Source of the DNA: an uncultured Planctomycetales bacterium
GTDB lineage: Bacteria > Planctomycetota > SZUA-567 > JAFGNG01
NCBI GenBank assembly: GCA_964577825.1
Contig: CAZOBJ010000006.1
Coordinates: forward strand, 1-60,810
Length of the DNA stretch: 60,810 bases
Reading direction: 5' to 3'
How positions within the stretch are numbered: the stretch's first letter is position 1; every line of letters begins with the position of its first letter. Of the stretch, positions 50,400-60,810 are shown in pieces. The translations under genes and the position numbers were made by a program. A model generated the notes under the pieces. That model was not told the origin of the DNA and made no database searches. It worked only from the letters and a program-made list of their open reading frames with translations.

Positions 50400-50471
50400 G
50401 CAGTGTACGAAGCGCTCGACGCGACCGGATTGGGGTGCGGCCGCGCCGGCACGCCAACCTGCGGACACGCC

Positions 50472-52823
50472 ATGCCCACGGATACCTCCCGGCTGCACGT
50501 GGTTTGTCTCGTGGACCGCCTCGGACGAGGGGGCACCCCGGCGCACCTGCGCGTGTTGCTGCCCGCGCTCGCGCGCGCGGGCGCGCGCGTGGACCTCGTG
50601 TGCCTGGCCGACGACCAGGGGCTCGGCCGGGAGTTCACCTCGCAGGGCGTTCCGGTGCGCAGTCTGCACGTGAGGAGCCTCCTGTCTGTGCACGGCTTGC
50701 GCGCCCTGCGCGCGCTGCGGCGCACCTGCATGGCCGGGGCCGCGGACGCGACGGGCACGAGAACCGTACTCGTCGCGTACCTGTACAGCTCCGGGCTGGC
50801 CGGGGCCCTGGTTCGCGCGATCACGCCGCAGGTTCGGTTCGTGCTCGCCTGGCGCGACACGGGCCACTGGCTGGACGGACGCAGGCGGCGCCTGCTGTGT
50901 TGGGCCTCGCGCCGTGCGGACCTCTTGACGGCGAACAGCGCGGCCGTGGAGGCCGCCGCCCGCGAGCTCGCGGGCGAGGACGGCCCGCCCATCCGGCGCA
51001 TCTACAACGGCGTGCCTTTCCCTGAGGCGCCTTCGCGCGGCGCGGAGCCCGATATGGTCGGCATACTCGCCCGGTTCGTGCCGGAGAAGGGGCACGACCT
51101 CCTGGTGCGCGCCGCGGCCCGGGTGCGCGAGCGCGGCCGACCCGTGCGCCTGGTGTTCGGGGGCGAAGGGCCCGAACGAGCGGCAATCGAGCGCCTCGCC
51201 CGGGCCGAGGGCCTGGCCGGCGAGACCACGTTCCTCGGCCGGGTCGACGACGTGGACGCGTTCTATGCGCGCATCGGGTTGTATGCCGCACCCTCGCGCG
51301 CGGAGGGGTTCAGCAACGCGGTGCTCGAGGCCATGGCCCGGGGCCTGCCCGTGGTGGCCGCCTCGGTCGGGGGCCTGCCCGAGGCCGTGCGCGAGGGCGA
51401 GACCGGTCGGCTCGTCGCGCCCGAGGACCCGGACGCCCTGGCCGACGCGATCGAGACCCTGGTCGCGAACCCCGAGCTCGCCCGCCGCATGGGCGCGGCC
51501 GGACGCCGCCGCGCGGCGCAATCTTTCTCCGTAGAGCGCATGGCCGAGGGCACCCTGGCCGCCCTGGCCGAGGCCGCGGGCCTGGACGAGCCCGCGCCGC
51601 GCGCGCACGTGGGGTATGTGGCGAGCCAATTCCCCCGGTACGACGAGACCTTCCTCGCGCGCGAGATGCTTGCCGTGCGCCGCGCCGGGACCGAGGTGAC
51701 GATCTTCTCCGTCAAGCCGTGCCGCGACGCGGTGGTCCATCCCGAGGCCCGGACCCTGGCCGAGCGCGTGGTGCACTGGCCGCTTGTGGGCAGCCTGCGC
51801 GTATGGGCCGGATTCGCGCGCGCGGCCCTTCGTCACCCCGTGCGCTGCACCCGCGCCCTGGCCGAGCTCATGCGCCACAGCACGCCAAGCGGCGGGCTGC
51901 TCGTGCGCGGACTCGCGGCCTTTCCCCAGGCCTGCGCGTACGCGGGCGAGGCCGCCCGGCGGGCATGCACGCACCTGCATGGGACCTGGGCCACGCACCC
52001 GGCGGCCATGGCCCTGGTCATGCATCGGGTCACGGGGCTGCCCTGGAGCTTCACCGGGCACGCGCACGACATCTACGTGGACACGACCGGCCTCGCCTAC
52101 AAGCTGCGCCGCGCCCGGTTCGCGCTCACCTGCACCGCGGCGAACAAGGACTATCTGCTCGGGCTCGCGCCCGGCCTGGACCCACGGCGCGTGCAGGTAA
52201 GTTACCACGGTTTGGACTTGCGTGAGGCGTACACCCCCTCCGCGCCGCCTCCGGGGCCGCCCTTTCGGATCGTGACCGTGGGGTCGCTCTTCGCCTGCAA
52301 GGGGCACGACCGCCTGCTTCGCGCTCTGCGCCTGCTCCTGGACCGCGGCGTGGCGGCCCGGCTCAGGATCGTGGGCGGCGGCCCGCTTGAAGGACAGATC
52401 AAGGATCTTGCGCGCGAGCTCGACCTGACGGCGTCGGTCACCCTCTGCGGGTACGTGAGCCAGGATCGCATGCCCGATCAGTACCGGGGCGCGCACGCCT
52501 TTGCGCTCGCGGCCGTGCCCGAAATCCACTGGGGCATCCCCAACGTGGTGGTGGAGGCCATGGCCTGCGCGCGGCCCGTGGTCGTGACCGCCCTGCCCGC
52601 GCTCCGTGAGGTCATCCCGAACGACGAGGCGGGGATGCTGGTGCCCGCGGCCGAGCCCGAGGCCTTTGCCCGGGCATTGGCGCGCCTGGCCGCGGAGCCT
52701 GAGCTTTGCGTGCGCATGGGCCGAGCGGCGCGTGCGCGCGTGGAGCCCCTCTTCGACCTGACGCGCAACGCGCGGCAAGTCGCGGGCCTCTTTCGCACCC
52801 ACGGACCGGAGGGCCCGGTGTGA
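50472..52823 (+). CDS. tandem GT4-GT4 glycosyltransferase fusion (second domain WcaL-like), 783 aa
   Basis: Domain 1: GRGGTP, NGV, EKG and EGFSNAVLE. Domain 2 from about 51604: VGYVASQFPRYDETF, HLHGTWAT, HAHDIY, YHG and WGIPNVVVE. Confidence 0.88.
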   Translation: MPTDTSRLHVVCLVDRLGRGGTPAHLRVLLPALARAGARVDLVCLADDQGLGREFTSQGVPVRSLHVRSLLSVHGLRALRALRRTCMAGAADATGTRTVLVAYLYSSGLAGALVRAITPQVRFVLAWRDTGHWLDGRRRRLLCWASRRADLLTANSAAVEAAARELAGEDGPPIRRIYNGVPFPEAPSRGAEPDMVGILARFVPEKGHDLLVRAAARVRERGRPVRLVFGGEGPERAAIERLARAEGLAGETTFLGRVDDVDAFYARIGLYAAPSRAEGFSNAVLEAMARGLPVVAASVGGLPEAVREGETGRLVAPEDPDALADAIETLVANPELARRMGAAGRRRAAQSFSVERMAEGTLAALAEAAGLDEPAPRAHVGYVASQFPRYDETFLAREMLAVRRAGTEVTIFSVKPCRDAVVHPEARTLAERVVHWPLVGSLRVWAGFARAALRHPVRCTRALAELMRHSTPSGGLLVRGLAAFPQACAYAGEAARRACTHLHGTWATHPAAMALVMHRVTGLPWSFTGHAHDIYVDTTGLAYKLRRARFALTCTAANKDYLLGLAPGLDPRRVQVSYHGLDLREAYTPSAPPPGPPFRIVTVGSLFACKGHDRLLRALRLLLDRGVAARLRIVGGGPLEGQIKDLARELDLTASVTLCGYVSQDRMPDQYRGAHAFALAAVPEIHWGIPNVVVEAMACARPVVVTALPALREVIPNDEAGMLVPAAEPEAFARALARLAAEPELCVRMGRAARARVEPLFDLTRNARQVAGLFRTHGPEGPV

Positions 52824-54796
52824 GCGCCCCCGAGCACGGACTCCGGGTTCTCCATCTCGTGTGGGGCCTGGCCCCGGGCGGGGCCGAGCGCCAGGTCGTC
52901 ACCCTGGCCAAGGACCAGGCCGCGGACCACCGGGTGCGCGTGTGCTGCCTCTGCGAGTCCGGGCCCCTGGCCGCGGAGCTCGAACAAAGCAATGTGCCCG
53001 TGACCGTGCTCGGCAAGGGCCGCGGGCCGGACCTGCGCGCGCTCCTGCGCCTGGCGCGCCTCTTGCGCGAGCAAGAGATCGACCTCCTGCACGCGCACAT
53101 CTGGGACGCGAACGCCTACGGCCGGCTGGCCGCGGTTCTGGCCCGCACGCCCGTGCGCGTCATCCACAGGCACAGCACCTTCGGGCTGGAGCGCTGGACG
53201 CGCCGCGCCGTGGACGCGATGCTCGCGCCGTTCACGGACGCGGCCGTGTGCGTGAGCGCGCAGATCGCCCGCCGGTCCGAGCGCGCCTGCGGCCTGGGCC
53301 CGGACCAGGTGGTGCTCATCCGCAACGGGATCGAGCTCGACCGGCTAGCCTGGGCGCGCCAACGCCGCGAGCAAGGGCCGCTCCCCACGCCGCCCCGGGT
53401 GCTGGCCGTAGGCGCGCTCGAGCCGCGCAAGGACCATGCGACCTTTGTCCGCGCGGCCAACGTGCTGCTCCAGGCGGGGGTGCAGGCCCGGTTCCTGATC
53501 GCCGGGGACGGCCCGCTGCGCGACGAGCTCGCGGACCTCGTCCGGTCCCTGGGCCACGAGGAGGCGATCGAGCTCCTGGGCGCGCGGGGGGACGTGGACC
53601 GGCTCCTTGCCGAGGCCACGGTCTACGTGTCCTCCTCGCGCACCGAAGGGGTGAGCCTCGCGCTCCTGGAGGCCATGGCCGTGGGCGTGCCCGTGGTGGC
53701 CACGGCCGTGGGCGGCACGGTGGAGGTGGCCGCCGAGGGCCGCAGGCTTGTGCTCGTGCCCGCAGGCGACGCCCAGGCCCTGGCCGAGGGCATCCGCGCG
53801 TACCTGGACTGCACGGGTGTGGGCCCGGTGCTTGCCGAACGCGCCCGCACCGAGGTCGCCCGCCGGTTCGACGCGCGCACCATGACGCACCGCGTCCAGG
53901 GCCTGTACCGGGACCTGGCCGCGCGCGCCCGCGTGCCCGCCCGCGAGCGGGTCGCCCGCCTGCCCCGCCGCGCGGCGCGGTGGCTGGCCACGCGCAGGCA
54001 CCTCGTGCGCGCGCCCAGCCTGACGCGGGGGCTGCCGGCGAATACCCTACGCGTACTCACCTACCACCGCGTGCGCGACGGCGCGGTCCACGATCGATTG
54101 AGCGTGTCCACCGCACAGCTCGCCCGGCACCTCTTTCTCTTGCACCGGCACCACATTCCCGTGTTCTCCCTGGCGCAGGCCTGCGAGCGGCTCGCGAGCG
54201 GCGACCTCCAGCCCGGGGCCGTGGCTCTGACCTTTGACGACGGGTACGCCGAGCTCCTGACCGAGGCCGCGCCCGTGCTGCGCGAGTTCGGCGCCGTGGC
54301 GACCCTGTGCCTGCCCACCGCGCTCGTGGACACGGGCGGGACGATCGACCGGTACCGGGGCGAGCCCGACGCGGGTCGGCTGTTGACCTGGGACGAGGCC
54401 CTGGAGCTGCGCGACCAGGGCTGGGAGCTCGCCGGTCACGGCCGCACGCACATCGACCTCGTGGCCGCGGACCAGGCCACCCTGGAGCGAGAGGTCGTGG
54501 GCTCGCGCGCGGACCTGGCCGACCGCCTCGGCGAGGCGCCCGCGAGCTTCGCGTATCCGTTCGGCCGCCTCTCGCGCGAGGTCCTGGCTGCGGTGCGCGA
54601 GGCCGGGTACGACCATGCGGTCACCGTCTGGCCCGGGGCGAACGACGCGCACACCCCGCGGCTCGTTCTGCGGCGCACCGAGGTGAGCGGCGAGGACACG
54701 GTCGCGGACCTCGCCTGCAAGCTGCGCGGCGGGTTCGACCCCCTGCACCGGCGCATGCAGCGGGGCACGACCATGGACCCGGAGGGGGTGGCATGA
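52820..54796 (+). CDS. GT4 glycosyltransferase fused to a NodB-type (CE4) polysaccharide deacetylase, 658 aa
   Basis: GTG overlaps the upstream TGA. GT4: GGAERQ and EGVSLALLE. CE4: LTYH, TFDDG, HGRTH and FAYPFG. Confidence 0.88.
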   Translation: MSAPEHGLRVLHLVWGLAPGGAERQVVTLAKDQAADHRVRVCCLCESGPLAAELEQSNVPVTVLGKGRGPDLRALLRLARLLREQEIDLLHAHIWDANAYGRLAAVLARTPVRVIHRHSTFGLERWTRRAVDAMLAPFTDAAVCVSAQIARRSERACGLGPDQVVLIRNGIELDRLAWARQRREQGPLPTPPRVLAVGALEPRKDHATFVRAANVLLQAGVQARFLIAGDGPLRDELADLVRSLGHEEAIELLGARGDVDRLLAEATVYVSSSRTEGVSLALLEAMAVGVPVVATAVGGTVEVAAEGRRLVLVPAGDAQALAEGIRAYLDCTGVGPVLAERARTEVARRFDARTMTHRVQGLYRDLAARARVPARERVARLPRRAARWLATRRHLVRAPSLTRGLPANTLRVLTYHRVRDGAVHDRLSVSTAQLARHLFLLHRHHIPVFSLAQACERLASGDLQPGAVALTFDDGYAELLTEAAPVLREFGAVATLCLPTALVDTGGTIDRYRGEPDAGRLLTWDEALELRDQGWELAGHGRTHIDLVAADQATLEREVVGSRADLADRLGEAPASFAYPFGRLSREVLAAVREAGYDHAVTVWPGANDAHTPRLVLRRTEVSGEDTVADLACKLRGGFDPLHRRMQRGTTMDPEGVA

Positions 54797-55539
54797 CGGG
54801 CGCGCTCGTGCTCATGTACCATGCCCTCTGCCAGGCCGGGCGGTTCGCGCGCGAGGACCTGAATCCCGACGACCGGGACTACGCCCTGCCCGCGGAGCTG
54901 TTCGACAGCCACCTGCGCGCGGCCCGAGACGCGGACCGCCGCGTGGTGTGGACCTTTGACGACAGTTGGGCCAGCCACCTGCGGGTGGCCGCACCGCTCT
55001 TGGCCGGGGCGCAGGCGACCGGGGTCTTTTTCCTGACCGTGGACCAGCTCGGACGCGACCACATGCTCACTCGCGCCGAGGCGCGCGAGCTCGCCGACGG
55101 CGGTGCGCAGATCGGCGCCCACGGCATGCGCCACCGTTACTTCAACGACTGTACGGCCCACGCCCTGGCCGCAGAGCTGCGCGAGGCGCGCCGCGCCCTG
55201 GAGGACCTGACCGGCCGGCCCGTCACCTGGCTCGCCCTGCCCGGGGGACGTGGGCACCCGCGCCTGAACGACCTCGCGCGCGAGGCCGGGTACACGCAGG
55301 TCTTCGGGTCGCGGCCCGGGCTGTGGACAGGGGGCGAGTCCGTGGCCCCGCGGCTGGCCGTGACCGAACGCCTGGACGCGGACCGCCTGGCGCGCCTGCT
55401 GGCCCGGCCCGGCCGGGCGCTTGTTCCCTTGCGCGTGCGCCACGGCGCGCTGTCCCTCGCGCGCACGATGCTGGGCAACCGCGCGTACGACCGGGCGCGC
55501 GCCGCGGCCTTGACCGCATGCAGAGGACGCCGAGCATGA
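54793..55539 (+). CDS. polysaccharide deacetylase (CE4), 248 aa
   Basis: ATGA overlap; LMYH, TFDDS, HGMRH and LPGG. Confidence 0.85.
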   Translation: MTGALVLMYHALCQAGRFAREDLNPDDRDYALPAELFDSHLRAARDADRRVVWTFDDSWASHLRVAAPLLAGAQATGVFFLTVDQLGRDHMLTRAEARELADGGAQIGAHGMRHRYFNDCTAHALAAELREARRALEDLTGRPVTWLALPGGRGHPRLNDLAREAGYTQVFGSRPGLWTGGESVAPRLAVTERLDADRLARLLARPGRALVPLRVRHGALSLARTMLGNRAYDRARAAALTACRGRRA

Positions 55540-56999
55540 TCCCCCGCCGGCCCCAGACCAAGGCGCGCGTGCTGGCCGTGGTGGTGGACACCGCGCTCTT
55601 CAACCTGGCGCTTCTGGGCGGGTATCTGTTGGGCGGGCTTCCGCATGGACGGCTCCTCTTGGCCGAAGAGGCGTTCGACGCGTACCAGGACCTCTTCTGG
55701 ATTCCGCTGGTCGCGGTGCCGGCGGGCCTGTACTTCTGCGGCCTGTACCGGCGCGACCCATACCGGCTGCTCGTGCGCTCCGCGGAAAAGGCCTTCATGG
55801 GATGCGTGACCGCCACGGGCCTGGTGCTCGCGCTCACCTGGGTGTTGCGCGGGCACCTGACCGCGCTGCGCGCAAGCGACATCGCGGGCACCACCACCGC
55901 CCAGCTGAGCCGCCTGCACTGGGGCATCAGCCTCTCGGCCCTGGCCATCGCGCTCGCGCTCGGGCCCGTGGCCATCACCCTGTGGCGCTTCGGCGCCAAC
56001 CGGATGGAGAGCGCCCTGTTCGGCTGGAGCCGGGTGCGCCAGCGCCTGGTGGTCGCCGGGTGGCTGGACCCCCGCGATCTGGAGCGCCTGGGCCGCCAGC
56101 ACTCGCCCTGCTACACGATCCTCGGCCACCTGGCCCCGGACGGACCGAGCCCCGGACGACCCTCGATCCGGCGGCTGGGCAGCCTGGATGAGGCGGGCGA
56201 GGTGCTCGCGCGCGAGCACGCGGACGAGCTCCTCCTCGTGGCCAGCCAACTGGGCCGGGACCGGATGCTTGCGCTCCTCGATGCCGCGGCCGCGCACGAC
56301 GTGCGCGTCTGGGTGGTGGCCGACGTGTACGGCGCCACCCTCTCCGCAGTGGGCCCGGGCCTGCGCGACCGCCTGCCCCTCCTGGAGGTGCGCAAGACCC
56401 GAATCTCCGGATGGACCCTGGTCGTCAAGCGCCTCCTGGACATCGGGGTGAGCCTGGTGGCGCTCGCGTTCGCCGCGCCGCTTCTGCTCCTGCCCGCGTG
56501 CGTGGCCATTGTGGTCGAGTCCAAGGGGTTCCCCATCTTCAGCCAGGACCGGGTCGGCCAGGGCGGGCAGGTCTTTCGCCTGTACAAGCTGCGCACCATG
56601 GTCGCGGACGCGCCCTGGCAGGGCCCGGCCCTCACCCAGCAACACGACGAGCGCATCACCCGGATCGGGCGGCTGTTGCGGCGCACGAGCATCGACGAGA
56701 TCCCGCAGCTGTGGAACGTGCTGCGCGGCGACATGAGCCTGGTGGGCCCGCGCGCGGTGGTCCCGTACGTGGTGGCCCGCTACGAGGACTGGGAACGCGC
56801 CACCCTGAACGTGAAGCCCGGACTCACGGGCCTAGCGCAGGTCTCGGGGCGCGACGCGGTCGGGTTCCGCGAGAAGAGCCTGCTCAACCTGTACTACGTG
56901 CGCAACTACTCCCTGTGGCTGGACCTGCGCATCCTGTTCGCCACCGCCTGGGTTGTGCTAAGCGGCGAGGGCACCGGAGGGACCCCGGATCATGGATGA
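55536..56999 (+). CDS. WcaJ/WbaP-like polyprenyl phosphoglycosyl transferase (priming transferase), 487 aa
   Basis: Four N-terminal TM; KRLLD, QDRVG, YKLRTM, D.RIT..G..LR, IDEIPQLWNVLRGDMSLVGPR, KPGLTGLAQV and YVRNYSLWLD. Confidence 0.92.
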   Translation: MIPRRPQTKARVLAVVVDTALFNLALLGGYLLGGLPHGRLLLAEEAFDAYQDLFWIPLVAVPAGLYFCGLYRRDPYRLLVRSAEKAFMGCVTATGLVLALTWVLRGHLTALRASDIAGTTTAQLSRLHWGISLSALAIALALGPVAITLWRFGANRMESALFGWSRVRQRLVVAGWLDPRDLERLGRQHSPCYTILGHLAPDGPSPGRPSIRRLGSLDEAGEVLAREHADELLLVASQLGRDRMLALLDAAAAHDVRVWVVADVYGATLSAVGPGLRDRLPLLEVRKTRISGWTLVVKRLLDIGVSLVALAFAAPLLLLPACVAIVVESKGFPIFSQDRVGQGGQVFRLYKLRTMVADAPWQGPALTQQHDERITRIGRLLRRTSIDEIPQLWNVLRGDMSLVGPRAVVPYVVARYEDWERATLNVKPGLTGLAQVSGRDAVGFREKSLLNLYYVRNYSLWLDLRILFATAWVVLSGEGTGGTPDHG

Positions 57000-59538
57000 A
57001 CGCACCGCGTTCCAGCTCTTCGTCGGGGCGCTCGCGCTCCTGGGTTACACCTACGCGGGGTATCCGGTTCTCATCCTGGCCCTGGAGCGGATCCTGTACC
57101 GCCCGGTGCGCAAGCAGCCGTGCACGCCGCCGGTGACCGTGCTCTTGCCCGCGTACAACGAGGAGCACACGATCGGCGCGAAGCTCGAGAACCTGCTCGA
57201 CCTCGACTACCCGCCCGAGAACCTGCGCATCGTGGTCGCCACGGACGGAGCCACGGACCGCACCGCCCAGATCGTGCGAGACTATGCCGACCGGAGCGTG
57301 GTCCTGCACGAACACCCCGTGCGCCGAGGCAAGGCCATGGTGCTCAACGACGAGGTGCCGCAATGCGAGACGGACATCGTGGTCCTGGTCGACGCGCGCC
57401 AGCGCCTGGCCCCGGACGCGCTGCGCGCACTGGCGGCCGACTTCGCGGACCCGCAGGTCGGCGCGGCGAGCGGCGAGCTCGTGCTCCAGCCGCCCGCGCA
57501 CGGCGGCATGGGCCGCGGCGTGGGCCTGTACTGGCGGTACGAGAAGCGCATCCGCAAGGCCGAAAGCGGCATCCACTCCACGGTCGGGGCCACGGGGGCG
57601 CTGTTGGCGTTCCGCCGCGCGCTGTGGCGGGGCCTGCCCGCGCGCACCGTGGTCGACGACATGGTGCTTCCCTTCCAGATCGTGCGCCAGGGGTACCGAG
57701 TGGTCCTGGAGGAGGACGCGCTCGTGTTCGACCGGGCCGGCGACTCGTGGGAGCGCGAGTTCGTGCGCAAGTCCCGGACCCTGGCGGGCAACTTCCAGAT
57801 CCTGCGCCATCCCATGCGCATGGCCGCGCCGCTGTTCAATCGGCTCACCTTCCAGTACCTCTCGCACAAGGTGCTGCGCCTGCTGGGCCCCCTGGCCCTG
57901 GTGGTGCTCTTCTGGTCGAACTACTTTCTGTTGCGCCACGCACAGATGCGCGACGACGCGACCGCGACCGCGGCGTACAACGCCGGCCTGCTCGTCCAGG
58001 GCCTCGCGTACGCGGGCGCGCTCGTGGGGTTCCTGGCCGAGCGGCTGCGCGCGCGCGTGCCCCTGGCGAGCCTGGCCTACAGCTTCGTGCTCACCCAGGT
58101 CGCCGTGGTGTGCGGATTCCTGCGGTTCGGATCCGGCCGCGACGACGCGGTGTGGGAGCGCACGCTGGCCGCGGACGCGGGCGGGCTGTACGAACGGCTG
58201 GTGCGGCTCGTGTTCGACTCGGTTCTGTTCTGCTTCGGGATCGCGGTCGCGTTCTACGTGCGCTACGGCGGGGCGCCGCCGCGGCACATCTTCCAGCTCT
58301 ACGAGAACCTGATCCCGCGCATGGACGTGGCCGGCACCACGATCGCGGTGCCGCTGGTCATGCTCGTGCCGCTCACGGTCCTGTACTTCTTCCGCGTGAA
58401 CGAACGGCGCACCATGGACGTGGACCCGGAGTTCGTGCTGCGCATCATCCACGCGGTAGCCGTGTGCACGCTCGTGGTGATGCTCCTCATCTACAAGTTC
58501 CGCACGAGCTTCACCATCGCGCACGAAGGCCGGGTGGCGAGCTTCCCCACCATGGTGCTTCTCCTCTCGTTCGTGATCAACAGCGCGGCGCTCTCGGCCT
58601 GGCGGCTGGGGTACAAGGCCCTGCGCTACTCGGCCCTGTCGGCCGAGGGTGCGTGGCGCTCGTCCGTGCTCTTCGCCCGCACCCGTGCGGACGCGGTGGT
58701 GCGCCGCGCCGTGGAGGCCAACCCCGCCACGCCCACGCGGCTCACGGCCATCGTCGCCCCCGAGGCCCCGCGCCCCCCCTCGGTGCAGGCGGGCGGCGAA
58801 CCGGGCCTCAACCGCACGCTCGTGGAGCGCCGCGCGGACGAGCTGCTCGTGGCCGCGGGCGCCCTCTCGCGGTCCGAGGTCCTGGGCGCGCTGGAGGCCG
58901 CCGACCGCGTGGGCGCGCAGGCGTCCCTCCTGCCCGGCGAGTACGAGCTCCTGTTCGGGGCCACGCCCCTACAGCTGCACAGCTACATCCCGGTCACGCC
59001 GCTCGAACGCAACGGAGCCGGCGAGCCCACGCGCTGGTGCAAGCGGACCCTGGATTGCACGGCCGGGCTGCTCTTCATGATCGCGGGCCTGCCCGGCGCG
59101 CTTGCCCAGGTTTTCCGACATGGCCGCGGCGCGGTGCGCGGCGTGGCCCGGCACGGCCGGCACGGGCGGCGCCTGCGCCTGCTGCGGCCCGCGTGCCCGA
59201 GGCCGAGACCCTCCGGATGGACGCGGCGCGGACTTCGCAAGTCGCTTCTGGGCTGGCACCTCTTGAAGGGAGACCTCGCCCTGGTGGGCCCGCCGGCCTT
59301 GACGCCGCGCGCGTGGCGGCGCGCGAGCGCGTTGGAGCGGCGCCTGTGCACGCAGCGCCCCGGCCTCGTGGGGCCCCGCCGGGTGGTGCTCGTGGGACGC
59401 ACGCGCCTGCGCCGGGCGCTTCGGCCCGCGCTCGTGTTGCGCGCGGCGCCCGGCGGCAGCCTGGAGCTCGCTTACACCGCCCGGTGGCTGCGGGGCCTGT
59501 GGCCGTTCTCTTCTCGATCTCGGAAAGGTTCCGGTTGA
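56992..59538 (+). CDS. GT2 glycosyltransferase fused to a degenerate WcaJ-like module, 848 aa
   Basis: GT2 motifs PAYNEE, TDGATD, VDA, DD and RK.RTLAG; then a WcaJ-type membrane domain and a remnant KRTLD...KGDLALVGP...PGLVG. Confidence 0.82.
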   Translation: MDERTAFQLFVGALALLGYTYAGYPVLILALERILYRPVRKQPCTPPVTVLLPAYNEEHTIGAKLENLLDLDYPPENLRIVVATDGATDRTAQIVRDYADRSVVLHEHPVRRGKAMVLNDEVPQCETDIVVLVDARQRLAPDALRALAADFADPQVGAASGELVLQPPAHGGMGRGVGLYWRYEKRIRKAESGIHSTVGATGALLAFRRALWRGLPARTVVDDMVLPFQIVRQGYRVVLEEDALVFDRAGDSWEREFVRKSRTLAGNFQILRHPMRMAAPLFNRLTFQYLSHKVLRLLGPLALVVLFWSNYFLLRHAQMRDDATATAAYNAGLLVQGLAYAGALVGFLAERLRARVPLASLAYSFVLTQVAVVCGFLRFGSGRDDAVWERTLAADAGGLYERLVRLVFDSVLFCFGIAVAFYVRYGGAPPRHIFQLYENLIPRMDVAGTTIAVPLVMLVPLTVLYFFRVNERRTMDVDPEFVLRIIHAVAVCTLVVMLLIYKFRTSFTIAHEGRVASFPTMVLLLSFVINSAALSAWRLGYKALRYSALSAEGAWRSSVLFARTRADAVVRRAVEANPATPTRLTAIVAPEAPRPPSVQAGGEPGLNRTLVERRADELLVAAGALSRSEVLGALEAADRVGAQASLLPGEYELLFGATPLQLHSYIPVTPLERNGAGEPTRWCKRTLDCTAGLLFMIAGLPGALAQVFRHGRGAVRGVARHGRHGRRLRLLRPACPRPRPSGWTRRGLRKSLLGWHLLKGDLALVGPPALTPRAWRRASALERRLCTQRPGLVGPRRVVLVGRTRLRRALRPALVLRAAPGGSLELAYTARWLRGLWPFSSRSRKGSG

Positions 59539-59614
59539 CCCCCTTGCGCGGGCCCGAGACCCCAGGCCGGTTTGATCGGTCGCCCTCTCGCATCCTGCGG
59601 AGACCGCACTCGCC

Positions 59615-60810
59615 ATGACCCACGACCGCGCCGTGTTGCGCGAACTGGCTGCGCGCTACGCCGAGGTCGCCGCGTCTGCGGATATGGACCGCCGCCGGGC
59701 CCTGTGGCGCGATCTGCACGCCCTCCGGCCGGTCCGGCCGCCCATCTACGTGCGCGCATGCGCATGGAAGGAACTACGCGAGGTCCTGCCCGAGGCGGAG
59801 TGCGAGTGCCACGATCCCTGGCTGCGTGAGCATGAGGACTGGCTGCGGTACATGCTCTTCCGCAGCACGCTCGGCGACGACTGGGTGTTTGAACCCTACT
59901 ATCCTTTGCGGGCCGTGTTCACGCTGCACGATTCGGATCGGCGCTGGGGCCTGCCGCTGGGCAGACAGCGCCCCACACAGGCGGGCGGATCGTACAAGAT
60001 CGATCCAGCCCTCAAGTCCCCCGAAGACTTGCAGCGTCTGGACTCGTTCCCGGGCACCATCGACGAGACGGCAACCGAGCGTGCGTTTACACGGCTGTCC
60101 GAAACCTTCGGCGATGCCCTGCCCGTAGTGGTGGACCGGTCGCCCTTCTGGTGGCGGTGGCGAGGCGACCTGTCCGCGAACCTCGGATTCCTGCGGGGCA
60201 TCGATCATCTCATGCTCGACATGGTAGACCGGCCGGACTGGCTGCACGCGTTGATGGGACGCTTGCGCGACACCGTGCTTGCAAGCCATGACCGAGCCGA
60301 GGACGCGGGCGACTGGCAGGCAATGGCGAGCTTCAACCAGGCGGTCCCGTACGCGGAGGAGACCGCCCACGCGGCCCTTGGCGGGCAGCCGGTGCCTCGC
60401 AAGCGACTGTGGGCGTTTGCGGCCGCGCAAGAGTTGACCCTGGTGAGCCCCGCCATGCACGAGGAATTCATGCTTGCCTACCAGCGGCCCATCCTGGAGC
60501 GGTTTCGCTGGTCGGCCTATGGATGTTGTGAGGACCTGACCAACAAGATCGACATGCTCCGTTCGATCCGCAACCTGCGCCGCATCGCAGTCGCGCCGGT
60601 GGCCGACCCCGGCCGCTGCGCTCGCCAGGTGGGGGCGGAGTACGTCCTCTCCTATCGCCCCAGCCCTGCGGAGACTGTTTCCTGTGGGTGGCGTCCTGAG
60701 CGGGTGCGCGAACGGCTGCGCGCTGACCTCGCCTCCATGCGGGGATGCCGGATCGACATCACGCTCAAGGACGTGGAGACCGTAGAGCGCGACCCCGACC
60801 GGGTGCGGGC
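59615..60810 (+). CDS. URO-D/methyltransferase-like TIM-barrel hypothetical protein, 3' end runs off the window
   Basis: Not in the ORF track (no stop). My translation: MTHDRAVLRELAARYAE..., FLRGIDHLMLDMVDRPDWLH, VSPAMHEEF...YQRPI, YGCCEDL and DITLKDVET. Confidence 0.7.
   Translation, partial: MTHDRAVLRELAARYAEVAASADMDRRRALWRDLHALRPVRPPIYVRACAWKELREVLPEAECECHDPWLREHEDWLRYMLFRSTLGDDWVFEPYYPLRAVFTLHDSDRRWGLPLGRQRPTQAGGSYKIDPALKSPEDLQRLDSFPGTIDETATERAFTRLSETFGDALPVVVDRSPFWWRWRGDLSANLGFLRGIDHLMLDMVDRPDWLHALMGRLRDTVLASHDRAEDAGDWQAMASFNQAVPYAEETAHAALGGQPVPRKRLWAFAAAQELTLVSPAMHEEFMLAYQRPILERFRWSAYGCCEDLTNKIDMLRSIRNLRRIAVAPVADPGRCARQVGAEYVLSYRPSPAETVSCGWRPERVRERLRADLASMRGCRIDITLKDVETVERDPDRVR

Follow-up and report, generated by a model that had tools for sequence, protein, structure and literature searches.

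This analysis concerns two adjoining genes in a 60,810-nucleotide stretch of DNA from an uncultured Planctomycetales bacterium (contig CAZOBJ010000006.1 of assembly GCA_964577825.1, hereafter the window), the second of which fuses a family 2 glycosyltransferase (GT2) to an apparently dead copy of a large monotopic phosphoglycosyl transferase (Lg-PGT). The first gene (55536..56999; all features given here lie on the + strand) encodes an intact Lg-PGT of 487 amino acids, P0002, the presumed active partner, and the second is the open reading frame (ORF) of the 848 amino acid fusion P0001 (56992..59538). The P0002 stop codon and the P0001 start codon share an 8-nt overlap read from the sequence, ATGGATGA (56992..56999), and this overlap, together with a GGAGGGA 9-15 nt upstream of the P0001 start codon, suggests translational coupling of the pair. 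P0001 opens with the GT2 module (residues 1-385, 56992..58146), made up of an N-terminal transmembrane (TM) helix, the GT-A domain, and interface and TM helices, and ending at a conserved SGRDDAVWE junction. An earlier sequence-only reading began the appended part at 58170, approximately residue 394, which does fall at this junction. Beyond it lie a four-helix TM bundle (residues 398-551, 58183..58644; delimited by the TIGR03025 and TIGR03023 alignments and by AlphaFold2, AF2), a Rossmann-like domain of unknown function (DUF; residues 552-656, 58645..58959; AF2 and alignment to the DUF of active Lg-PGTs), a segment aligned by hhalign to the WbaP-type β-hairpin and carrying a conserved S-Y-I-P-V patch (residues 657-677, 58960..59022), and a dead monotopic PGT-like domain (residues 678-848, 59023..59535; AF2, profile and fold matches).

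The order of four-TM bundle, DUF and catalytic domain is that of an Lg-PGT, and P0001 conforms to it. NCBIfam TIGR03025 (EPS_sugtrans) aligns its positions 27-279 of 445 with P0001 residues 447-705 (E 9e-14) and TIGR03023 (WcaJ) covers residues 430-701 (E 2e-9), the aligned stretch being the four-TM block and Rossmann-like DUF of large PGTs. P0001 falls below the profile cut-offs, scoring 51.6 bits for TIGR03025 (cut-off 295.55 bits) and 17.0 bits for Pfam Bac_transf (PF02397, cut-off 27 bits), the latter over residues 755-798 only. By BLASTP it is collinear with P0002 at 26 % identity. When a profile of ten family C-terminal halves was compared by hhalign with a profile of 13 active Lg-PGTs, the two aligned with 100 % probability (E 6.5e-66) over 424 collinear columns that begin at the first TM helix and finish where the catalytic domain does. 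A single-chain AF2 model of P0001 built on 46 sequences has a mean pLDDT (the predicted score in the local distance difference test) of 84.5 and a predicted template modelling score (pTM) of 0.67, with bundle helices at 398-425, 455-466, 479-502 and 520-551, alternating β-α elements through the DUF, and a pLDDT in the dead PGT domain of about 90-97 at residues 681-790, about 77-84 by residue 830. Foldseek matches the C-terminal module of this model to Salmonella enterica WbaP (8t53; E 2e-9, 465 columns), and by profile the dead PGT domain matches WbaP and PglC (8e37/8g1n; positions 8-183 for 8e37). The DUF of some relatives also matches Pfam CoA_binding_3, at 35.8 bits in P0016 (cut-off 25) and under the cut-off in P0162 and P0003. 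In the hhalign register the hairpin segment equals P0002 residues 268-288, where the AF2 model of P0002 has a low-confidence β-hairpin (272-285); Y665, I666 and P667 are invariant in alignment A1, within a local conservation peak at 661-670. As the TIGR profiles, hhalign, AF2 and Foldseek agree, the architecture is real, which upholds the sequence-only reading both in its description of a four-TM block, Rossmann-like linker and PGT remnant after the GT2 and in its statement that a whole PGT copy is fused in frame directly behind an intact one.

P0002 is a typical intact Lg-PGT, with 207 bits for Bac_transf, 317 bits for TIGR03025 (cut-off 295.6), matches to the WbaP structures 9s7s and 8t53 at E about 1e-36, and KLRTM, DEIPQ, GPR and D-X12-P (D302-P315) motifs all present. 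It is not the sole priming enzyme of its genome, since a second intact Bac_transf gene (181 bits) lies on another contig (G000:C23:20330-20842).

The elements conserved among monotopic PGTs (monoPGTs) are the D-X12-P re-entrant helix (PglC D11/P24, WbaP D284/P297), the Asp-Glu catalytic dyad (PglC D93-E94) and a helix-stabilising Asp (PglC D168), with PglC K59, R88 and R111 serving substrate orientation (PMC12802240). Of these P0001 keeps the re-entrant motif intact (D688-X12-P701, 59053..59094); among its relatives several have the exact motif, P0013 and P0016 have it offset by a single residue, and it is incomplete in P0007, which has no Asp, and P0017, which has no Pro. The K-x-R-T-M site is lost, LRLLRPA (residues 728-734, 59173..59193; three alignments, whose register differs by no more than 2 residues) standing where the active PGT has YKLRTM, and one basic residue of the site may persist as R732, which is invariant in the six closest homologues. 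The dyad site, RGLRKSLLGWHLL (residues 746-758, 59227..59265), has no acidic residue, nor is there any Asp or Glu in the 17 residues before G760 of the G-D-L-A-L-V-G-P anchor (residues 744-760), and R749-K750 occupy the dyad's distance from that anchor. In relatives the dyad register reads RR, RA, RT, RW, AR, NL, NS or NF. At the Asp position the planctomycete clade has Arg, P0016, P0017 and P0162 have Asn, and P0015 has Ala. The anchor itself is kept in P0001 and followed by Pro instead of the conserved Arg equivalent to PglC R111 (59269..59295), so that GPR has become GPP, and the R-P-G-L-x-G motif is retained. The PglC R88 equivalent falls to R746 and R749 in an aligned RGLRK, in a register made ambiguous by a 4-5 residue deletion, R746 being invariant in alignment A1; the PglC D168 position is Glu in P0001 (S-L-E825-L) and Asp in nearly all relatives (S-L-x-L-D). 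The strings picked out in the sequence-only reading (KRTLD, KGDLALVGP, PGLVG and YTARW) all occur in the translation, and its observation that the remnant is without the K-x-R-T-M and Asp-Glu motifs present upstream as KLRTM and DEIPQ was correct.

A six-frame scan of 58000-59800 finds a match to the PGT hidden Markov model in the ORF's own frame only. With PGT similarity confined to that frame, and approximately 16 homologues collinear and in the same frame, a frameshifted intact PGT is ruled out, as the sequence-only reading had argued. Judged by its residues, the module appears dead for phosphosugar transfer. That it might nevertheless be a working PGT, or catalyse a new reaction through non-canonical residues, we consider very improbable: its fold and re-entrant helix are preserved and some members have a Glu near the dyad position (LLGAELL, LLGSELL), but no acidic residue is invariant anywhere in the domain across the family, the Asp position is taken by Arg, Asn or Ala, the domain is conserved in the manner of a relaxed one, and an intact PGT is supplied next door.

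Full-length homologues of P0001 exist at 33-58 % identity, namely P0003 (the nearest, 58 %), P0004, P0005, P0006, P0007, P0013, P0015, P0016, P0017, P0162 and P0164, with further copies in the relatives' genomes G026, G035, G016 and G002. The family comes to approximately 16 members, each found in an independent assembly and each in the same frame; four are low-GC, and the dyad is absent in all those examined. Every member comes from metagenomes or metagenome-assembled genomes (MAGs), the named relatives being Planctomycetota MAGs. Bac_transf scores among the relatives run from 25.7 to 80 bits, mostly over the C-terminal half of the profile, and are 63-80 bits in low-GC members. The family is rare, being present in 6 of 41 close relatives and in 2 of 401 genomes sampled across the phylum; a word-based search with the C-terminal half, swamped by low-complexity candidates, returned the closest relative only. 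Additional strong matches of the phylum-wide profile search, considered as free-standing dead copies, are ordinary active Lg-PGTs. In a maximum-likelihood tree the dead modules lie on one side of a 100/100 branch, which indicates that catalysis was lost once, before the lineages split.

Retention since then was gauged from domain-wise mean pairwise identity over the same 21 genome pairs for the fusion and its active partner, a measure we preferred to the ratio of nonsynonymous to synonymous substitution (dN/dS). In the active neighbouring PGT the TM bundle is 38 % identical, the DUF 34 % and the catalytic domain 72.5 %, and in the fusion the TM bundle is 49 %, the DUF 28 %, the dead catalytic domain 34 % and the GT2 54 %. 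The bundle is thus the best conserved part of the dead module and, at 49 %, exceeds the active partner's bundle (38 %); the dead catalytic domain, at 34 %, is level with the active enzyme's non-catalytic DUF (34 %) and no lower. Within the module conservation peaks at the TM helices, the S-Y-I-P-V patch, the K-R-x-x-D at the start of the re-entrant helix, GxxSLVGP and RPG. Nei-Gojobori dN/dS is 0.2-0.6 for the dead domain versus 0.14-0.35 for the GT2 core, values that are upper bounds only because synonymous sites are saturated, and also biased in third-position G+C.

These data bear on whether the module is a neutrally decaying remnant or an artefact of assembly or gene calling, which we think exceedingly unlikely. 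The window copy is the most eroded and its dN/dS against its nearest relative reaches 0.59, and high GC can hold frames open by chance; against this stand the in-frame architecture of approximately 16 independently assembled sequences (in the four low-GC ones a frame seldom stays open by chance), the single ancient origin of catalytic death, the confident AF2 fold, and the absence of PGT similarity in any alternative frame. The sequence-only reading had named uniqueness to this assembly and neutral decay as outcomes that would tell against it; what was found instead was a set of some 16 independent members, domain-wise constraint and a single-clade origin. Residues 398-848 accordingly count as a pseudoenzyme on the operational definition of a homologue whose catalytic residues are gone and which is retained under selection, a classification drawn from sequence comparison. 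On our preferred explanation, which as a whole, with the mechanism set out below, we give an even chance, they are an Lg-PGT paralogue that lost its chemistry a single time in the distant past and persists as a structural part at the C-terminus of an active membrane GT2.

The dead catalytic domain has also changed in charge. The Arg-richness noted in the sequence-only reading is plain, residues 678-848 having 19.9 % Arg and 2.9 % Asp+Glu, compared with 8.8 % of each in the P0002 catalytic domain, and the aligned residues 678-836 carry a net charge of +30 with 20.1 % Arg. Net charge is +11 to +30 in the dead domains of all PGT-adjacent members, including +22 in the low-GC P0015, versus +2 to +9 in the active PGT catalytic domains of the same loci (+6 in P0002). 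Several members come from low-GC organisms and are without Arg-richness. The members that have no adjacent PGT, P0016 and P0017, have net charges of +4 and +5. The window has a G+C of approximately 73 %. A GC artefact as the sole cause is ruled out by the +6 of P0002 in the same genome and the +22 of low-GC P0015; since the charge excess extends to the latter and is absent from the former, Arg-richness is a derived property of the domain and not just GC pressure.

A basic, acid-free domain invites the proposal that it acts in cis as a lipid-carrier receptor, binding undecaprenyl phosphate (Und-P) or the undecaprenyl-pyrophosphate-linked sugar (Und-PP-sugar) and presenting this acceptor to the fused GT2, with no contact between proteins required. 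The D-X12-P, G-x-x-S-L-V-G-P and R-P-G motifs are kept, the fold core is predicted at a pLDDT of about 90-97, and acidic residues have been lost and basic ones gained, to +11 to +30 compared with +2 to +9 in active domains. The family does not, however, conserve substrate-orienting residues of the K59 and R111 type, its catalytic-like domain changes at much the same pace as the DUF, and P0016 and P0017 show no charge excess. We rate this proposal as rather improbable taken by itself, though it is compatible with the explanation we prefer, which is developed below.

The GT2 module to which the dead copy is attached looks catalytically competent. Pfam GT2 (PF00535) matches P0001 residues 46-324 at 62.5 bits (E 6e-17; cut-off 23.3), and across 46 fused and lone homologues D85, D134, D223, R259, R262, H292 and K293 show no variation, and D222 and K260 hardly any, so that residues 1-385 combine the conserved Asp motifs of the GT-A domain with an above-threshold Pfam match, as expected of a membrane-integrated, PcManGT-like GT2. 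The closest solved relative is PcManGT of Pyrobaculum calidifontis (PDB 6yv7), a minimal cellulose-synthase-like GT2, which matches residues 1-385 best in both sequence (E 2e-29, 26 % identity) and fold (Foldseek with the AF2 model, E 3e-17, TM-score 0.78 on target); it differs in being archaeal, stand-alone, about 350 amino acids long and without any PGT-like extension.

The fusion gene is seldom found alone. An intact Lg-PGT with KxRTM and DExPQ motifs is encoded immediately upstream in 10 of 12 contexts (the window, L001, L002, L003, L084, L087, L088, G026, G035 and G016), and in five of these (the window, L001, L002, L084 and L088) the two genes overlap by 4 or 8 nt. A related-locus search with the full-length alignment returned mostly lone GT2 homologues (approximately 395 amino acids, mostly Bacteroidales), which served as a control, and among 63 such loci only 1 has a PGT within 6 kb. 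The PGTs encoded next to the fusions group in the maximum-likelihood tree as a clade of their own (100/100), which is nested among the ordinary Lg-PGTs of planctomycetes, and the branching within it mirrors that of the dead-module clade, congruence which indicates that PGT and fusion have been inherited together.

Known Lg-PGTs are homodimers, joined through the TM bundle and DUF. The WbaP homodimer is held by TM helix 3 contacts and a swapped β-hairpin at the end of the DUF, and its active sites are 77 Å apart (PMC10942596), while for Myxococcus xanthus EpsZ dimer formation has been proposed to switch the enzyme on (PMC12802240). The dead module of P0001 retains the parts concerned, a four-TM bundle and a DUF with a hairpin segment, and would pair with the co-translated active Lg-PGT encoded upstream. 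The two would form an asymmetric complex containing a single working priming site and a single GT2, in which the PGT would produce Und-PP-sugar and the adjoining GT2 would add the second sugar after a hand-over, during which the basic, acid-free dead site may keep hold of the product, an anionic pyrophosphate-lipid, or of the membrane surface. Because the dead copy is conserved and nearly always follows a working priming enzyme, it probably docks the second enzyme of the pathway onto the first, and an independent tie between this GT2 and the priming step comes from other bacteria, in which members of its subfamily occur in fusions with active small PGTs. The idea of a scaffold or docking module fits the upstream PGT in 10 of 12 contexts, the congruent trees, the kept TM bundle, the homodimers of Lg-PGTs and the basic domain. 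That the pseudo-PGT forms a WbaP-like dimer with the active PGT, binds the lipid-linked product, or does both, is in our estimation as probable as its opposite. The stricter form, an obligate heterodimer in which the dead protomer replaces one active protomer of a WbaP-type homodimer and brings the GT2 with it, and in which the remodelled basic pocket receives Und-PP-sugar from the live site, is possible but in our view less likely than not.

Alternatively the dead scaffold might serve self-association or anchoring, giving a (GT2-pseudoPGT)2 homodimer or a GT2 membrane anchor that sets its orientation, with no contact to the active PGT and adjacency reflecting a shared pathway. Lg-PGTs are homodimers, the TM bundle is conserved, P0016 and P0017 occur without an adjacent PGT, and the pTM of 0.67 suggests that GT2 and bundle pack in cis. 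This would leave unexplained the immediate and often overlapping upstream PGT in 10 of 12 contexts and the congruent trees, as well as the ability of lone GT2 homologues of approximately 395 amino acids to manage without the module, and the retention and basic character of the dead catalytic domain; we therefore consider it unlikely. A further suggestion is that the dead protomer is a regulatory subunit which activates or limits the active PGT, either by forming the dimer or by means of a DUF that senses nucleotides, in the manner of EpsW. Lg-PGT activity is tied to dimerisation (PMC12802240), the WbaP DUF has been proposed to be regulatory (PMC10942596), and the gene overlap suggests translational coupling and matched protein amounts; yet conservation is lowest in the DUF, there is no evident sensory domain or signal, and fusion to a GT2 points to coupling linked to catalysis and not to control, and this suggestion strikes us as distinctly improbable.

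Several observations weigh against pairing of the dead module with the active PGT. A fusion homodimer explains the conserved TM bundle equally well, and P0016 and P0017 have no adjoining PGT, the genes upstream of them encoding an arginyl-tRNA synthetase and a DUF4159 protein. The DUF, which carries part of the WbaP dimer interface, is the least conserved region (28 %), and the hairpin-aligned segment is a low-confidence coil in the AF2 model of the fusion. Of all the members the window copy has eroded furthest: it scores 17 bits for Bac_transf, GPR has become GPP, Y-x-R-N is gone, Glu replaces Asp at the position that stabilises the helix, and dN/dS against the closest relative is 0.59. There is also a problem of topological parity, in that three hydrophobic helices lie between the GT-A domain and the four-helix bundle (the 299-351 helices, then 359-381), and a fourth membrane crossing before the bundle would invert it. 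If the bundle retains the WbaP orientation, one post-GT-A helix must be interfacial; this is probably helix 359-381, since 352-358 and 466-476 seem, by the positive-inside rule, to be cytoplasmic. Were all three post-GT-A helices to span the membrane, the DUF and dead PGT domain beyond the junction (58066-58182, residues 359-397) would face outward.

The fusion can be placed against several described systems. It resembles the Lg-PGTs WbaP, WcaJ and EpsZ (PDB 8t53, 9s7s) in having the four-TM bundle, Rossmann-like DUF, D-X12-P helix and PGT fold in the same order, and differs in lacking the Asp-Glu dyad, K-x-R-T-M and the GPR arginine, in scoring far under the family cut-off (51.6 versus 295.6 bits), in being fused behind a GT2, and in the basic character of its catalytic domain, a domain which is the best conserved in Lg-PGTs (72 %) and fast-evolving in the P0001 family (34 %). 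Fusions of glycosyltransferases to PGTs are a described class, the 'Bi-PGTs', in the part of PMC10942596 that cites O'Toole 2021. Examples found here (P0211, P0212 and P0268 of Agarivorans sp. JK6) share with P0001 a GT2 of the same subfamily N-terminal to a monoPGT-type domain. Their PGT is intact, with Bac_transf scores of 200-224 bits and KFR[ST]M, DELPQ and PRP motifs, whereas that of P0001 is dead; theirs is small, without TM bundle or DUF, whereas P0001 carries a full Lg-PGT; and at the P0001 locus PGT activity is supplied by a separate neighbouring gene. P0001 therefore has the Bi-PGT architecture of a pathway enzyme joined to a monoPGT-type domain, and not its PGT competence. The fusions of GT2 to an intact small PGT (P0211, P0212 and P0267-P0269) are approximately 600-650 amino acids long, the Agarivorans sp. 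JK6 one being annotated 'sugar transferase', and by their motifs they are predicted to be genuine bifunctional GT2-PGT enzymes.

In eukaryotic cis-prenyltransferase an inactive paralogue, NgBR/Nus1, is kept for a working complex with its active paralogue DHDDS. The fold and pathway there are unrelated, and the P0001 heteromer is a prediction only. EpsW of Myxococcus xanthus likewise is an accessory protein that acts on an Lg-PGT, favouring the active dimer of EpsZ, and differs in being a response regulator, no PGT paralogue, and carrying no glycosyltransferase (PMC12802240). The sequence-only reading knew of no described system with this architecture, which holds in part: GT-PGT fusions have been described, and no description of a version with a dead full-length Lg-PGT was found. 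A literature search outside which the O'Toole 2021 surveys lay gave no description of a dead or pseudo monoPGT. Lg-PGTs and GT-PGT fusions being known, it is the dead full-length large-PGT version that is apparently undescribed.

Little is understood of how Und-PP-sugar gets from the priming transferase to the glycosyltransferase that acts next, or of what the TM bundle and DUF of Lg-PGTs do. The fusion family amounts to a natural experiment in which the Lg-PGT scaffold has been kept without its chemistry, joined to the next enzyme and left beside a live partner over a long period. A heterodimer, if it forms, would offer a tractable system in which to show that steps 1 and 2 of Wzx/Wzy-type glycan assembly are physically coupled, and would allow the structural and catalytic roles of the Lg-PGT accessory domains to be separated; in its asymmetric form it would be a hard-wired two-enzyme initiation complex through which the first lipid-linked intermediate is channelled, and would give the monoPGT superfamily its first described pseudoenzyme. 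There is in addition a warning for annotation, as genes of the family are named only 'glycosyltransferase family 2 protein', and in relatives that pass the Pfam threshold the Bac_transf match could be misread as a second priming activity.

Upstream of the P0002 gene the window has a run of overlapping genes on the + strand, encoding a GT4-GT4 protein (50403-52823), a GT4-polysaccharide-deacetylase protein (52706-54796) and a second deacetylase (54763-55539), and continuing into the genes of P0002 and P0001. Downstream of P0001 the open frame 59615-60808 (398 amino acids, running off the window end) has no Pfam match at E 1e-3, and G+C there is down to about 0.65-0.68. At other loci, the fusion gene of P0005 is followed after 236 nt by a MurJ/MatE-family gene (L088:3024-4682), whose product may be the flippase of the pathway, there being no Wzx in the cluster. 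Poly_export (Wza-like) and GNVR/AAA_31 (Wzc-like) genes (L085:9652-13597) lie 3-6 kb downstream of P0016 and point to a Wzx/Wzy-type export context for the family.

The same GT2 subfamily recurs in other combinations. Matches of approximately 800 amino acids with two matched stretches (P0018 etc.), considered as PGT fusions, are instead GT2-GT2 tandems; such tandems (P0018-P0024, P0163 and about 40 more) are common in metagenomes and bear the source names 'cellulose synthase/PNAG synthase-like'. In P0208 (962 amino acids) the GT2 is joined to an exosortase D (VPLPA-CTERM-specific) domain, and in P0009, P0010 and P0214-P0256 (approximately 950 amino acids; Acidobacteria and others) it makes up the N-terminal 45 %, the C-terminal half of approximately 550 residues having no Pfam domain on record. 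A lone GT2 homologue of Prolixibacter bellariivorans (L080:3290-7197) has LptF/LptG permease and GT4 genes to one side of it and a riboflavin gene to the other, and lone homologues may act in a lipopolysaccharide- or lipid-linked context without a PGT.

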